From assembly GCF_054482595.1 (NCBI RefSeq), contig NZ_CM137008.1: a stretch of 64,000 nucleotides of DNA; one strand, written 5' to 3'. The notes beneath the pieces were generated by a model. The model saw only the letters and a program-made list of their open reading frames with translations. It had not been told where the DNA came from and ran no database searches. A program made the position numbers and the translations under genes. The first letter of the stretch is position 1, and each line of letters opens with the position of its first letter. Positions 18,751 to 40,231 of the stretch are shown here, piece after piece.

Positions 18751-18773
18751 TCCCGAATTGACGGTTAACTCGG

Positions 18774-18810
18774 GCATTCCCCTCTCCCCTTCGGGCTGAG
18801 GGGAATGAGC
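18774..18810. terminator. bidirectional terminator hairpin between convergent yaeH and cdaR
   Basis: Inverted repeat CATTCCCCTC...GAGGGGAATG. Confidence 0.5.
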
Positions 18811-20150: not shown

Positions 20151-21575
20151 TTACTGCATTAACAGGTAGATGGTGCTGTCGCCGCGCTGAATGTTCAGTG
20201 CCAGCACAGACGGTTTGCTGTCGAGAACTTTACGCAGTTCAGCGATGTTTTTCACTGCCTGCTGGTTCGCGCCAATAATCACATCACCTTTCTTCAGGCC
20301 GATCTGCGCAGCCGGAGTGCCCGTTTTCACGTTGTTCACTACCACGCCCTGATCTTTGCCTTTGTTGCTCATCTCAGCGCCTTCAATGCCGTTGAAGATG
20401 GAGCTGGAATCAACCTGATTCTGGCTGCTCTGCTGCAGTTCCAGATTCACGTTGACCTGCTTACCGTCGCGCAGCAAGCCCAGGGTCAGTTTGCTGCCCA
20501 CCGGCATAGTACCCACTTGAGCACGCAGTGCGGCAAAGCTGCTGATTGGCTTACCGTTCAGTGAGGTGATCACATCACCTGCTTTAATGCCCGCTTTTGC
20601 AGCGGAGGAGTTAGGCAGAACCTGGCTTACGAAAGCACCGCGCTGGGCGTCAACTTTCATCGCTTTCGCCAGTTCGGAGTTCAGCTCAGTCCCCATAATA
20701 CCCAGCTCACCGCGTTTCACCTGGCCGTATTCCACCATCTGCGAGGTCAGGTTTTTCACCATGTTACTCGGGATAGCAAAACCGATACCGATGTTGCCGC
20801 CGTCCGGTGCGAGGATCGCGGTGTTGATACCGATCAGTTCGCCGTTCAGGTTAACCAGCGCACCACCGGAGTTACCACGGTTGATCGCTGCATCGGTCTG
20901 GATGAAGTTTTCGTAGTTTTCGGCATTCAGGCCGCTACGCCCCAACGCAGAGACAATCCCGGAAGTTACCGTCTCGCCCAAACCAAACGGGTTACCAATC
21001 GCTACGGTGTAATCACCCACGCGCAGTGCATCAGAATCCGCCATCTTAATTGCGGTCAGGTTTTTCGGGTTCTGGATCTGGATCAGCGCGATATCAGAGC
21101 GCGGATCTTTGCCAACCATCTTCGCGTCGAACTTACGGCCATCGCTCAGTTGAACTTTAATGACCGTCGCGTTATCAACAACGTGGTTGTTGGTGACGAC
21201 ATAGCCTTTATCGGCATCAATGATGACGCCGGAACCCAGCGCCATGAATTTCTGTTGCTGGCCGCCGCCATTACCGCCCTGGCCCCCCTGGCAGAACGGA
21301 GAGCTCTGGAACGGAGAACCTTCCTGGCAGAACGGAGAATCATCACCGAAGAACTGCTGGAAATTACGCGGCATACGCGGCGTATTAACGGTTGTGCTAC
21401 CTTCTACGTTAATGCTGACCACTGAAGGCATCACCTTTTCGAGCATCGGTGCAAGGCTTGGCATCTGCTGGGCTGTCGTTGCTGAAGAAGTCTCAGCCGC
21501 CGTTGCAGAGAGCGGAGATAACGCCAAACCTAAACTCAGAGCCAGTGCACTCAGTGCTAATGTGGTTTTTTTCAT
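20151..21575 (-). CDS. degP: periplasmic serine endoprotease DegP (HtrA)
   Basis: 474-aa ORF MKKTTLALSALALSLGLALSPLSATA... with GNSGGAL protease motif and two PDZ-length C-terminal regions. Confidence 0.95.
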   Translation of the reverse strand: MKKTTLALSALALSLGLALSPLSATAAETSSATTAQQMPSLAPMLEKVMPSVVSINVEGSTTVNTPRMPRNFQQFFGDDSPFCQEGSPFQSSPFCQGGQGGNGGGQQQKFMALGSGVIIDADKGYVVTNNHVVDNATVIKVQLSDGRKFDAKMVGKDPRSDIALIQIQNPKNLTAIKMADSDALRVGDYTVAIGNPFGLGETVTSGIVSALGRSGLNAENYENFIQTDAAINRGNSGGALVNLNGELIGINTAILAPDGGNIGIGFAIPSNMVKNLTSQMVEYGQVKRGELGIMGTELNSELAKAMKVDAQRGAFVSQVLPNSSAAKAGIKAGDVITSLNGKPISSFAALRAQVGTMPVGSKLTLGLLRDGKQVNVNLELQQSSQNQVDSSSIFNGIEGAEMSNKGKDQGVVVNNVKTGTPAAQIGLKKGDVIIGANQQAVKNIAELRKVLDSKPSVLALNIQRGDSTIYLLMQ

Positions 21576-21704
21576 GTATTTCAGTCTCGATTAACAGATA
21601 ACGCAAAATTGCTGTGTTCTTCAGATTCGTTTTATAGCGCGAAGTTCCGAACTAAAGTTTCTGCAAAAGGTAAAAATTTATTGTTCGTCTTTACAAAAGC
21701 CTGG

Positions 21705-35071: not shown

Positions 35072-37606
35072 TTAATTACTACCAAACATATCTTTAATCC
35101 AACCGGCTACACCGTCGCTGTCTTTCTGCTCTTGCTGAGCAGGTTGCTGTTGCGGCTGTTGCTGCGGCTGAGAAGACTGATCAAACGGATTGCCTGACGG
35201 CTGCTGCTGCATCTCACTCTGCTGGCACAGCGATTGCGGATCGCTGGTCCAGACCGGCAAGACACGCATGCCACCGCTGCAAACAAAGTTGCCGTCGTAG
35301 TCCACGCCCATATCTGCAATATCTTCTGGCGGAACAAGATTCAGCGGCGTTGGCGTCTGGTTAGCCAGATAACGCTGATAAATCGACATTGCCCCGCTGG
35401 CACCATACAGTTTGGTCGGCTGGTTGTTATCACGGCCGACCCAGGTGATGGTCACCGTGCTGCCGTCAATGCCCGCAAACCAGGTATCTACGTTATTGTT
35501 GGTAGTCCCTGTTTTCCCTGCCAGATGCAGGTTCGGGTATTTCGCCCCAAGCTGACGACCCGTACCACGTTGTACCACCTGCTGCATGGTCCATAGTGTC
35601 AGATACGCCGCCTGCGCCGGAACAGCGCGTTCCGCCTGCGGGAAGCTCTGATACAGCACTTTGCCATCTTCCGCGATTACCGAACGCAGCGCAGAAAGCG
35701 GTGCACGGTTACCACCGCTGGCGATGGTCTGGAATGCCTGCGCCACTTCGATTGGCGTTAAGTTCAACGCCCCCAGCAGCATTGCCGGAACCGGATGCAA
35801 CTGATCTTTCGGTACGCCCAGTTTGATCCAGGTATCCGTAACCGCAGGCAGCCCCAGCGCCATCCCCAGATTTACCGTCGGCACGTTCATCGAACGGGTC
35901 AACGCATCCACCAGCATCACTCTGCCGCTTTCGCTATAACGACGGTCATCATTCTGCGGTGACCAGACCTGGCCATTCGGCTGACGCAGCGCAATTGGCG
36001 CATCCGCAATCCACGTATTCAGACGATAGATTTTCGGCTGGCTTAAGGCCGTCAGATAAGTCGCTGGTTTTGCAAGGGAACCAATCGAACGACGCGCCTG
36101 CATCGCACGGTTGTAGCCCGCAAACTGCGGCTCAGAACCTCCGACCATCGCACGAACTTCACCACTAAAGCGGTCGACGACCACAATCGCGGTTTCCAGA
36201 TCGCTCAGCTTACGCTGTTTCTTAAGTGCCGGAATGCCTTCCACGGCGGCTTTTTCTGCCGCGTCCTGGGCCACCGAGTCAAAGGTAGTGAAGATCTTCA
36301 CGCCGGAGAGATCTTTTACCTTATCGCCTAATTTAGCCTGAAGCTCCTGACGCACCAGTTGCATAAAGGCTGGCTGAGGAGAGATCACCCCACCGCGCGG
36401 CTGAACACCCAGCGGACGCGCACTCAACATGTCATAGAGTTCTTGATCAATAATCTGTTGCTGTTGCAGCAGACGCAGTACCAGATTACGTCGCTCCAGC
36501 GCCAGTTTCGGGTTACGCCACGGGTTGTAGATGGACGCTCCTTTCACCATACCGACTAACAGCGCCTGCTGATCGAGGCTCAATTCTTCTACCGGGCGAC
36601 CAAAGTAATACAAGCTCGCCAGCGGGAAGCCGCGGATTTCGTTGTCGCCGCTCTGACCGAGATACACCTCGTTCATATACAGCTCAAGAATACGGTCTTT
36701 GCTGTAACGCGCGTCCATGATCAGCGCCATGTAGGCTTCATTCGCTTTACGCCAGTAAGAGCGCTCGCTGGAGAGGAACAGGTTTTTCACCAGCTGCTGC
36801 GTCAGCGTACTCGCCCCCTGCACCGTTCGACCTGCGGTCAGGTTTGCCAGCACCGCACGTCCGATGGAGTAGAGACTGATCCCATCATGCTCGTAGAAAT
36901 GACGGTCTTCTGTCGCCAGCAAAGTATCCACCAGCAAATCCGGGAAACCACTGCGCGGCACAAACAAACGCTGCTCACCGTTTGGTGAGGAGATCATGGT
37001 GATCAGACGCGGATCAAGACGGAAGAAACCGAACTGACGGTTGTTCTCCATATTGACGATGGTCGCCAGATGATCGCCATCAAAGGTCAGACGCGCACGC
37101 ACCTGCCCTTCTTTGCTGTCCGGGAAATCAAACGGACGGCGGATCATCTCAATGCTGTTAGCCTGCACAGTAAATTCGCCAGGACGGGTCATTTTCGACA
37201 CCTGACGATACTGGGTTGCCTCCAGCAGCTTCACCATTTCGTTCTTGCTGATGGTCATGTCTGGCTCAAGGTTGACCATTCGGCCATAAACTGCCGCAGG
37301 CAGTTGCCAGACCTTGCCATCAATACGGCTGCGAATTTTTTGATCGAGATAAACGCCGTAAATGGCGATCAGCACGGCAAAAACGATAGCCAGTTTTAAC
37401 AGCAGCCATAGCCAGCCGCGTTTGCCACGAGGCTTACGCCCTTTGCCTTTGCCCTTACCTTTGCGCGGCATCGGTTCTTCATCCTCATAGTCATCATAAT
37501 CGTCGTAATCATCGTCATCTTCGTAACGACGACGGCTTACCTTTTGTTTGACCGGACGCGTCGGTTTCCCTTTGCGTCCAATTGGCTCGCGGTCATTCCC
37601 GGCCAT
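35072..37606 (-). CDS. mrcB: penicillin-binding protein 1B (bifunctional glycosyltransferase/transpeptidase)
   Basis: ORF contains [23 protein letters not shown]...; start placed at that Met (844 aa); track ORF has 5 extra N-terminal codons. Confidence 0.93.
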
Positions 37607-37703
37607 GCTTTTTCTCCGCAATATTCAGGCGCAAAAGCCCGATTTTCTGTTCTTCTGTTACAAGACAGAAGAAGATATCTCTCAAAATTTGAGCTCGATC
37701 GGT

Positions 37704-37789
37704 CCCCTCTCCCTTAAGGGAGAGGGTTAGGGTGAGGGTGAACGTGCGCGCTGATGCCCTCACCCCGGCCCTCTCCCACAGGGAGAGGG
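37704..37789. repeat. cluster of three GC-rich palindromic units between hrpB stop and mrcB start
   Basis: CCCTCTCCC-ttaa-GGGAGAGGG; GGGTGAGGG...CCCTCACCC; CCCTCTCCC-aca-GGGAGAGGG. Confidence 0.6.
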
Positions 37790-37801
37790 AGAAAACCAAC
37801 C

Positions 37802-40231
37802 TTACGAATACTTTTTCGTCCGTCGCGTCGGTGCCGTGTTTGCCGGGTCGTCCGGCCAGACGTGTTTGGGATAACGCCCTTTCATCTCTTTTTGCACCTC
37901 ACGATACGCCCCTTTCCAGAAGGCCCCCAAATCACGCGTGATTTGCAGCGGCCTTTGGGCAGGTGAAAGCAATTCCAGCACCAGCGGCACGCGCCCCTGG
38001 GCGATCGTCGGATTGGTGGCCTCACCAAACATCTCCTGCATTCTCACCGCCAGCGCGGGCGGGTTATCTTCATGATAACGAATGGCGATCCGGCTTCCCG
38101 TCGGCACAGTGTAATGCGCAGGCAATTCACTATCCAGACGTTGCTGCATTCCCCAATCAAGTAATCCGCGTAGTGCCTGATAAATGTCGAGTGATTTCAG
38201 GCCGCGTAGTGAATGTACACCGGCCATATGTGGCAGCAGCCACGTTTCCAGCGTCGCCAACAAACTTTCATCATCAACCGCTGGCCAGTCATATTCTGGC
38301 AACCACTTTCCGGCGCATAACAAACGCAAGCGTAGCTGTTCCGCTTCCGCCGTCCAGTTGAGCACGCTTAAACCTTTATCACGGATGCCGTTAAGCATCG
38401 CCTGATGCAACTCGTCTTCTGACGGTTTCGCCAACGGCTGCACTTTCACCGTCAACTGACCGATTTGCAGCCGACGCCAGGCTTTCAGTGTACCTTGCGC
38501 GTCATCCCATTCCACGGTGTCAGATTGCTGCACCAGCTGCGGACTGCGTCGCACTAATTCATCAATATCGACCGGTAACGCCAGTAAAATCCGCGCATCC
38601 GGCGAGGCGCTGCCCTGCAATAATAACGGTGCGATCAACCATTCGTGGCGGCTTAGCGCGTCGTCGGCATCGAGCATCGCCCCCATGCCGTTTGCCAGTT
38701 GATAGCGTCCATCTTGCCCACGGCGGCGAGCAATGCGATCGGCAAACGCCCCGGCAAGTAGCGGCGCGATAAGCGAACTGTCTGCCTCACCGCCGCGTAC
38801 GTTTAAGCGTTTTAACAGTTGCTGACTACGTTGCTGCCAGGCTGGTTGATTGCGCGAAAACGCCACGCCCAGGTCACTATTGCCCATCCGTGGCGGCTCT
38901 TCGAGAATGGCGGCAATTTTTGCCGCGGTAGCAGCTTCGTCGTCGCTCTTTGCGCTAACCAGCATTGCCGCTAAACGCGGATCGTTACCCAGCGCTGCCA
39001 TTTTTTGCCCCTGCGCACTAAGCCGTTCACCGTCCAGCGCCCCCAGCATCTTTAACAGGCGTTTCGCGGCCAGTAAATTCACTGCTGGCGGTTGATCCAG
39101 CCAGCTCATCTGCGCTGGATCGCTGCATCCCCATTGCAGTAATTCCATCAGCAAACCGGAAAGATCGCTTTGTAATATTTCCGGTTCACTTTGCGCCGCG
39201 GCGCGTTCTGCTTGTTCCTTGGCGATTAAATGCTGGCAGATACCCGACTCCAGACGCCCGGCGCGCCCGGCACGCTGCGTCATGGATGCCTGGCTAACGC
39301 GTTGAGTAATCAGTCGCGTAAGCCCCGTGCGCGGATCAAAACGCGCCACACGCTCCTGGGCACAATCCACCACCAGACGAATACCTTCAATGGTTAAACT
39401 GGTTTCAGCAATATTGGTCGCCAGCACCACTTTGCGCATCCCTTGCGGTGCCGGGAGGATCGCTTTTCGCTGATCGTTCAGCGACAACGCGCCATACAGC
39501 GGGCAGAGCAACACATCACTGCCGATGCGCGAAGCCAGTTGTTCCTGCACACGCTGAATTTCTCCGACGCCCGGTAAAAATAACAGTAATGATCCGCTTT
39601 CCTGACGCAGCATTTCGGCGGTAGCAACCGCGACGGCTTCGTCAAAACGCTGATGCGCGGGCAACGGAAAATAGCGGCGCTCAACCGGAAACGAGCGCCC
39701 TTCTGAGATGACGACGGGCGCTTCTGGTAGCATTTGTTGCAAGCGGTCGTTGTCCAGCGTAGCTGACATAATCAGCAGTTTAAGGTCATCGCGCAGGCCT
39801 TGTTGCACGTCTAGTAACAACGCCAGCGCCAAATCCGCCTGCAAGCTGCGTTCATGGAATTCATCGAGAATCACCAGCCCAACACCGCTCAGTTCCGGGT
39901 CACGCTGGATCATCCGCGTCAGCACGCCTTCGGTAACCACTTCCAGGCGGGTATTTGGCCCGACGCAGTTTTGCGCACGCATCCGGTAGCCAACGGTATC
40001 GCCTGGCTTTTCGTTAAGCAGCTCCGCCAGCCGTTGCGCGACGTTACGCGCCGCCAGACGACGCGGCTCCAGCAGGATAATTTTCCCGTTAATGCCGGGA
40101 TGCGCCAGCAGTTGCAGCGGCAGCCAGGTTGATTTCCCGGCCCCGGTCGGCGCACTTAATAATACCTGCGGCGCACAATCGAGAGCGGTAAGTAATTCAG
40201 GTAAGACGGCAGCAACGGGCAACGACGACAC
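37802..40231 (-). CDS. hrpB: ATP-dependent RNA helicase HrpB (DEAH box)
   Basis: 824-aa track ORF with GAGKST Walker A and DEFH motif; start tentatively placed at in-frame GTG (40229-40231) to give about 809 aa; upstream ATG at 40276 also possible. Confidence 0.85.
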   Translation of the reverse strand: MSSLPVAAVLPELLTALDCAPQVLLSAPTGAGKSTWLPLQLLAHPGINGKIILLEPRRLAARNVAQRLAELLNEKPGDTVGYRMRAQNCVGPNTRLEVVTEGVLTRMIQRDPELSGVGLVILDEFHERSLQADLALALLLDVQQGLRDDLKLLIMSATLDNDRLQQMLPEAPVVISEGRSFPVERRYFPLPAHQRFDEAVAVATAEMLRQESGSLLLFLPGVGEIQRVQEQLASRIGSDVLLCPLYGALSLNDQRKAILPAPQGMRKVVLATNIAETSLTIEGIRLVVDCAQERVARFDPRTGLTRLITQRVSQASMTQRAGRAGRLESGICQHLIAKEQAERAAAQSEPEILQSDLSGLLMELLQWGCSDPAQMSWLDQPPAVNLLAAKRLLKMLGALDGERLSAQGQKMAALGNDPRLAAMLVSAKSDDEAATAAKIAAILEEPPRMGNSDLGVAFSRNQPAWQQRSQQLLKRLNVRGGEADSSLIAPLLAGAFADRIARRRGQDGRYQLANGMGAMLDADDALSRHEWLIAPLLLQGSASPDARILLALPVDIDELVRRSPQLVQQSDTVEWDDAQGTLKAWRRLQIGQLTVKVQPLAKPSEDELHQAMLNGIRDKGLSVLNWTAEAEQLRLRLLCAGKWLPEYDWPAVDDESLLATLETWLLPHMAGVHSLRGLKSLDIYQALRGLLDWGMQQRLDSELPAHYTVPTGSRIAIRYHEDNPPALAVRMQEMFGEATNPTIAQGRVPLVLELLSPAQRPLQITRDLGAFWKGAYREVQKEMKGRYPKHVWPDDPANTAPTRRTKKYS

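Follow-up and report, generated by a model that had tools for sequence, protein, structure and literature searches.

BoxC is a dispersed, GC-rich and non-coding extragenic repeat of Escherichia coli and its relatives. Its unit consists of a C-block, a G-block and a second G-block together with short conserved flanks. REP/BIME/REPIN elements are alike in being short GC-rich extragenic palindromes, which frequently come as inverted doublets and then form a single long hairpin. They are also located in 3' UTRs, differ from strain to strain and show RNA 3' ends at the base of the stem. BoxC differs from them in two respects: it is unrelated to the REP consensus (compare the true Citrobacter REPs at the site studied here, GCCGGATAAGGCG...CATCCGGC), and its unit includes a third, non-palindromic G-block. 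REP is said to stabilise mRNA 3' ends, which reportedly was Newbury's finding in 1987, and the REPIN concept is said to go back to Bertels and Rainey in 2011. To our knowledge there is no RAYT-type transposase for BoxC.

The TMECO motif of Holder 2015 (PMC4666352) is the BoxC repeat of the 1990s, which was re-described later as PIT (potential intrastrand triplex) elements. In MG1655 that survey counts 23 units, distributed over 18 loci. Five of its MG1655 loci carry two close units on opposite strands, always one of type A and one of type B. Kaplan 2016 (PMC5100583) describes a T-rich stretch of 4 nt preceding the C-block of HPG2. In Enterobacter sp. 638, Taghavi 2010 listed 100 palindromes of the form CCCTCTCCCXX(X)GGGAGAGGG and guessed at a function in termination.

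The DNA analysed here is a stretch of 64,000 nt, referred to as the window. It is E. coli sequence; several complete genomes match it with 100% identity, and its orientation is opposite to that of K-12. Between hrpB and mrcB it carries an element that is, with near certainty, an inverted pair of BoxC units (PIT; TMECO type A + type B; HPG1 + HPG2). The K-12 ortholog of this site is found in Table 1 of Holder 2015 (PMC4666352) as TMECO #1 (type B, 164547-164580) and #2 (type A, 164631-164597), and in Table 1 of Kaplan 2016 (PMC5100583), rows 'hrpB >>> mrcB', as HPGQ 5 and 6. The element, the hrpB-mrcB locus, the pairing pattern, the in-vitro structures and the link to local variability are all already published. 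Since element and locus stand in two published tables, the finding has little weight as a discovery. Its use lies in annotation, where the short ORFs are to be ignored and the hrpB-mrcB spacer is to be labelled as a BoxC pair. Moreover the alleles that occur naturally at this site (filled, half-deleted and empty) are a ready-made test set for questions about the BoxC family.

Architecture and family assignment of the hrpB-mrcB element

A sequence-only reading of the window had pointed out three nested GC-rich palindromes with a common arm family between hrpB and mrcB. They are present as described. Within 37705-37789, the CCCTCNCCC/GGGNGAGGG family is represented by six arms of 9 nt. On both strands of the 64-kb window the CCCTCNCCC pattern has seven matches, six of them in this interval, against a shuffle expectation of 1.3 +/- 1.1 (0 of 100 shuffles get to seven). 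The arms given in that reading are exact, whereas the three-block structure of the unit and the published family name were missed. A better description than three palindromes is a single three-block unit present in two inverted copies, 18 nt apart and with their third blocks facing each other. The unit reads CCCTCTCCC-loop-GGGAGAGGG-(TTA or CCG)-GGGTGAGGG, the second loop being TTA on the + copy and CCG on the - copy. The features of the region are:

35072..37606, - strand: mrcB coding sequence
37691..37704, + strand: conserved type-A flank GAGCTCGATCGGTC (family pattern GAGCnCnATCGGTC), from the flank alignment; pairs with the opposite flank in the RNA fold
37705..37738, + strand: type A BoxC/TMECO unit, CCCTCTCCC (37705-37713), TTAA, GGGAGAGGG (37718-37726), TTA, GGGTGAGGG (37730-37738); ortholog of MG1655 TMECO #2 (164631-164597) and HPGQ 6
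37739..37756, no strand assigned: inter-unit spacer of 18 nt, TGAACGTGCGCGCTGATG; its other strand, CATCAGCGCGCAC, is the 3' flank of the type-B subfamily, also present at ilvC-ppiC
37757..37789, - strand: type B BoxC/TMECO unit, on the - strand CCCTCTCCC-TGT-GGGAGAGGG-CCG-GGGTGAGGG, on the + strand CCCTCACCC (37757-37765), CGG, CCCTCTCCC (37769-37777), ACA, GGGAGAGGG (37781-37789); ortholog of MG1655 TMECO #1 (164547-164580) and HPGQ 5
37790..37801, - strand: conserved T-rich type-B flank, - strand GGTTGGTTTTCT, immediately adjoining the hrpB stop codon (37802-37804)
37802..40231, - strand: hrpB coding sequence, 809 aa; stop codon TAA in element-bearing alleles, TGA in empty-site alleles

The pair is intergenic, located between the stop of hrpB (37802) and the start of mrcB (37606). 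The short ORFs overlapping it had been called artefacts, and this holds: no CDS is annotated there in K-12, and the DNA is absent from E. albertii and from at least 1469 of 5426 E. coli genomes (27% or more), which contain the empty junction as a contiguous 60-mer.

The family assignment was evaluated using profiles built from the other K-12 copies, with the window excluded. The type-A profile matches 37686-37747 (E = 8.8e-14), the type-B profile 37801-37744 (E = 1e-13). Both units show the BoxC core, i.e. a C-block CCCTC(T/G)CCC(C), a loop of 3-5 nt, a G-block (G)GGGAGAGGG, a TTA/CCG loop and a G-block GGGTGAGGG. Homology reaches beyond this core of ~35 nt: the type A flanks are GAGCnCnATCGGTC and GAACAGGCC, those of type B TTTTCT and (C/T)A..CGCGCAC. 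The same cores with conserved flanks were seen at all ten further K-12 loci inspected. Thus all testable features of BoxC/PIT/TMECO match, including core, intergenic site, multiple copies, flanks and the pairing of A and B on opposite strands. Compared to the K-12 BoxC copy, one loop base differs (TTAA here, TTGA in K-12) as well as one flank SNP.

The arrangement of type A (+) and type B (-) with facing third blocks is found at three other K-12 loci. The outer flanks are common to all four head-to-head K-12 pairs, and a spacer of ~30 nt is common to three of the four. Hence the whole composite was copied and not the core alone. In this regard the BoxC inverted doublet resembles a REPIN, as it forms one long hairpin that is copied as a unit. 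The hrpB-mrcB pair deviates from the other three by its shorter spacer of 18 nt, which it has in common with a single type-B copy at ilvC-ppiC. A permuted order is observed at K-12 lldD-trmL (1530-1656 of the extracted locus), where type A with its flank is followed by 59 nt, the T-rich flank and type B, such that the C-blocks face each other.

A genome-wide search for the arm motif had been suggested to define the repeat family; this family is the multi-copy BoxC, which is not unique to this site. With a segment of 106 nt, BLAST finds a median of 11 places in each E. coli genome and at most 26, with hardly any on plasmids. The proposal of a repeated, extragenic and non-coding element is borne out by these numbers.

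A pattern scan with one genome per species yielded at least 120 stretches with the 33-nt core. They stem from Candidatus Contendobacter, an Archangium MAG (~70 loci among the matches listed), an unclassified MAG and others, with the same core and lineage-specific flanks. The scan agrees with Holder 2015 (PMC4666352), where the motif is described as widely distributed. Across the Archangium MAG, MAG GL140_5 and Ca. Contendobacter, the identical three-block core is present in dozens of copies, with conserved flanks peculiar to each. At one locus of the Archangium MAG (5727-5747 of the extracted locus) the copy is located inside an ORF of 358 aa and reads ...SPSPSGRGVGE... In the few loci inspected among these at least 120 loci of other phyla, no RAYT/REP-like transposase was found between nearby BoxC copies.

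Rfam contains no BoxC family, and none of its families scores over threshold at the hrpB-mrcB site. Matches to miRNA precursors in a permissive Rfam search were rejected as chance resemblance of hairpins. Whalefall-1 RNA (RF01762) scores below threshold, with 15.5-17 bits against a gathering score of 37, at 37703-37739 (+) and 37756-37791 (-). Its hairpin CUCUCC/GGAGAG followed by AGGGUGAGG is resembled by both units, but the spacing is 24 nt in the model and 3 nt here, and the score is far under the gathering threshold. We regard this resemblance as a lead and not as membership; it could reflect a distant relative or coincidence. Elsewhere in the window two Rfam families exceed their gathering scores, t44 RNA at 13327-13413 (-) with 83.5 bits and the HtrA 5' UTR thermometer at 21570-21615 (-) with 77 bits.

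Folding, RNA 3' ends and the terminator question

RNA folding had been suggested as a check and gives a stable structure. The RNA in hrpB/mrcB sense (- strand) folds with -75.2 kcal/mol, compared to -45.0 +/- 4.0 kcal/mol for shuffled sequences (z = -7.6). Folded as single-stranded DNA, the z-score is -5.0. Two very stable RNA folds are predicted, one long nested hairpin (-75.2 kcal/mol) and three adjacent hairpins with a stem that closes the flanks (-67.9 kcal/mol). As both are very stable, 'nested' and 'three units' are two ways of depicting one palindrome.

The palindromes had been read as terminator-type elements whose stacking might provide strong transcriptional insulation of mrcB. The pair indeed has likeness to an intrinsic terminator: a GC-rich stem-loop, very stable, directly downstream of the hrpB stop codon, near whose base a weak RNA 3' end is listed. 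In contrast to intrinsic terminators it has no U-tract and its stem is far longer than typical. Neither a U-tract nor a T-run is present 3' of the stem on the transcribed strand, where GACCGAUCGAGCUCA follows (sequence after the stem: GACCGAUCGAGCUCAAAUUUUG). Scanning 37300-38100 with a terminator consensus gave no site at the element, the sole match being an unrelated one at 38047, and a promoter consensus gave none in or beside the element in the same interval. Moreover, as far as Holder 2015 (PMC4666352) recounts an earlier functional study of PIT elements, promoter or terminator activity was absent.

In vivo, the published Term-seq data of Adams 2021 (PMC7815308, supplementary file 1) show one RNA 3' end near the site, MG1655 164636(+). 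It is located 5 nt past the last GGGAGAGGG / GC stem (...GGGAGAGGGGACCG, then the end), which corresponds to position 37700 of the window on the - strand. A 3' end at the stem, for which Term-seq had been proposed as a check, is listed, but only with a score of 987, where good terminators reach 1e4-1e6, and in one of three conditions (the third, minimal medium, judged by position in the file). Such a weak end could be noise or merely reflect low expression of hrpB. Term-seq gives the same signal for termination and for exonuclease stalling or trimming. No Rho-termination region is listed near the locus in the data of Adams 2021 (PMC7815308).

The same list places 3' ends at other BoxC or BoxC-like loci (632098, 847200, 3781065, 3959467 and 4231270), where they follow the hairpin at a distance of 3-11 nt in either orientation. 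By rough estimate this recurrence is far above chance, given a list of a few thousand rows and a genome of 4.6 Mb. The RNA hairpin hence marks 3' ends, weakly at hrpB-mrcB, and not as a canonical terminator.

Similar single hairpins had been reported at two further sites in the window. One of them has proved a probable relative:

18767..18804, + strand (first noted as 18776-18808): hairpin CCCCTCTCCCC-TTC-GGGCTGAGGGG with BoxC-like flanks, third block lost; type-A profile E = 0.033 (marginal)

Its arms CCCCTCTCCCC/GGGCTGAGGGG are imperfect and the G-block is fused (GGGCTGAGGGG). Judged by this sequence it is probably a decayed two-block copy of BoxC. In K-12, its ortholog coincides with a strong 3' end of the RNA of the upstream gene, 183649(-), which occupies three rows in the Term-seq supplement, two of them scoring 7.1e4 and 1.3e5. 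The second hairpin, at 57895-57921, exists as well but was rejected as a BoxC member (arms TCCTCTCC/GGAGAGGA, profile E = 4.2). Its sequence is in no row of the Term-seq list searched. On the - strand, at 57896-57922, the hairpin TCCTCTCC/GGAGAGGA is followed by GTTTTG, resembling a weak terminator-like site for the upstream gene on this strand.

Taken literally, a strong Rho-independent terminator formed by the stacked palindromes would insulate mrcB from hrpB transcription. The stable hairpin directly behind the hrpB stop codon speaks for it, and so do the 3' ends at the stem base here and at several other BoxC hairpins. In addition, RegulonDB-derived tables list hrpB and mrcB as separate single-gene operons (Kaplan 2016, PMC5100583), and Taghavi 2010 made the same guess for the Enterobacter palindromes. 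The missing U-tract, the negative scan, the weak end confined to a single condition and the assays as recounted by Holder 2015 (PMC4666352) all argue against it, as does the absence of the element from E. albertii and from at least 27% of E. coli genomes. We consider such a terminator very unlikely. Of the terminator-type reading the weak 3' end is what stands. Strong insulation of mrcB is not supported, the element being dispensable in at least a quarter of strains.

How the pair works can be proposed by analogy to REP, and we give such REP-like behaviour about even odds. The pair is located in the hrpB 3' untranslated region and precedes the conserved leader of mrcB. When transcribed from hrpB, the palindrome is predicted to form a stem of extreme stability (-68 to -75 kcal/mol), which would set the 3' end a few nt beyond its base. 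The likeliest cause would be 3'-to-5' exonucleases that stall at the stem while trimming read-through transcripts. At most, an inefficient termination independent of a U-tract might contribute. The pair would thus be no canonical intrinsic terminator, and mrcB expression would not depend on it. At the DNA level, its own repeats would render the site prone to deletion.

Polymorphism and origin of the hrpB-mrcB spacer

The hrpB-mrcB spacer is polymorphic among 5,424 E. coli genomes. About 3190 E. coli genomes contain the pair at 95% identity or more. Representative alleles comprise the full pair, a deletion of 63 bp, a deletion of 12 bp, an insertion of ISEc20 and an element-free form with a TGA stop codon of hrpB. 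The 63-bp deletion is located between direct CCCTCTCCCT repeats and leaves a single hairpin, and in the 12-bp deletion CCCTAACCCTCT is lost. As the deletions end in short direct repeats, plain slippage at the palindrome explains these alleles.

E. albertii and one E. coli allele exhibit the same uninterrupted spacer of ~13 nt with the TGA stop and no element. The ~90 nt upstream of mrcB (37607 to ~37697) are kept as far as Citrobacter, and this conserved stretch starts exactly at the end of the repeat, i.e. the insertion point. Because the spacer of E. albertii is short and empty, the pair is a derived insertion. Comparison of these sequences shows that the BoxC pair was inserted into an ancestrally short spacer; it is now polymorphic and decays as slippage occurs between the direct repeats it contains.

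Other species have different inserts at this position. In E. marmotae a degenerate BoxC-like insert follows the hrpB stop (3631-3700 of its extracted locus), with the left junction in common. Citrobacter freundii and C. amalonaticus have a classical REP palindrome after the hrpB stop instead (3631-3700 of each extracted locus). The REP being at the equivalent position, a stem-loop after hrpB recurs. Different repeat families are thus seen repeatedly at one spot behind the hrpB stop codon.

In an alternative reading, the relevant structure is formed by DNA. One strand of each three-block unit could fold back as an intrastrand triplex of the purine motif, or its four G-tracts could alternate between the hairpin and a G-quadruplex. 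Such a structure could stall replication and drive local genomic instability or regulation. This fits the required block order and the mirror symmetry in each unit. At the sequence level a G-quadruplex motif (four G3 tracts, loops of 1-7 nt) is present in GGGAGAGGGTTAGGGTGAGGG and GGGAGAGGGCCGGGGTGAGGG. According to CD and NMR, oligonucleotides of type A and B form triplexes with a Tm of 70-82 C, and sequence variation is higher around TMECO loci than around controls (Holder 2015, PMC4666352). CD evidence for an equilibrium of hairpin and G4 was provided by Kaplan 2016 (PMC5100583). The 63-bp and 12-bp deletion alleles together with the variable junctions would also suit an unstable site. However, in-vivo DMS footprinting did not reveal triplex protection, and with the complementary strand the oligonucleotides became duplex (Holder 2015, PMC4666352). 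Slippage at direct repeats accounts for the deletions with no need of a triplex, and the decayed two-block copy at 18776 still has a strong RNA 3' end although its third block is lost. We therefore hold non-B DNA to be an unlikely basis of the observations.

Presence/absence polymorphism and decay of the element would likewise be seen for a purely selfish or neutral repeat without effect on hrpB or mrcB, the mapped RNA end then being incidental. Published surveys (PMC4666352, PMC5100583) contain no link to gene class or orientation, and the common spacers of the three long head-to-head K-12 pairs as well as the common flanks of all four indicate a composite that is copied as a unit. Such a repeat does not readily account for RNA 3' ends that keep a constant, short interval to the hairpin in several independent copies, for an unrelated palindromic repeat at the same position in Citrobacter or for an identical 33-nt core conserved across distant phyla. 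Neutrality is accordingly an explanation that we doubt.

Seemingly the best explanation as a whole is a BoxC pair that was inserted as a derived element and acts as a REP-like barrier at RNA 3' ends, which we consider fairly probable. Besides the weakness of the 3' end at this locus, two further points weigh against a REP-like barrier: the polymorphism is equally expected of a purely neutral or selfish repeat, and according to the in-vitro studies in the literature the structure that matters is rather a DNA triplex or G-quadruplex.

A more far-reaching view would combine these data. BoxC hairpins might be genuine determinants of RNA 3' ends that do without a U-tract and are in use throughout the E. 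coli genome. They would then be functional analogues of REP, in conflict with the negative outcome of older reporter assays. The hrpB spacer might be a favoured slot that was filled independently, with BoxC in Escherichia and with REP in Citrobacter. The 33-nt core, which is nearly identical in Myxococcota, Competibacteraceae and other phyla, might further point to a conserved trans-acting factor or a mobilising enzyme that recognises it. We put this combination forward tentatively, as a possibility that we rate as improbable.

The ISEc20 allele is found in E. coli O145:H28 RM13516 (NZ_CP006262.1, ~171.7-173.2 kb; 1115-2571 of the extracted locus), where this IS110-family element is located inside the type-B unit. 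A specificity of ISEc20 for BoxC was rejected: three independent sites share only CCGGGGGG / IS / (A/G)GGG, and two of the three are not BoxC. Since all three sites show this pattern, ISEc20 seems to target the G-run. In the O145 allele, a T-to-G change converts GGGTGAGGG to GGGGGAGGG and creates the target run of ISEc20 in the third block of BoxC.

The conserved leader/promoter region of mrcB contains a perfect inverted repeat of 9 bp at 37650-37673, TTCTTCTGT-6 nt-ACAGAAGAA, which may represent an RNA hairpin or an operator. E. albertii, E. marmotae and Citrobacter all retain this stem, with changes that affect both of its sides, e.g. TTCTTCTGTC/GACGGAAGAA in C. amalonaticus.
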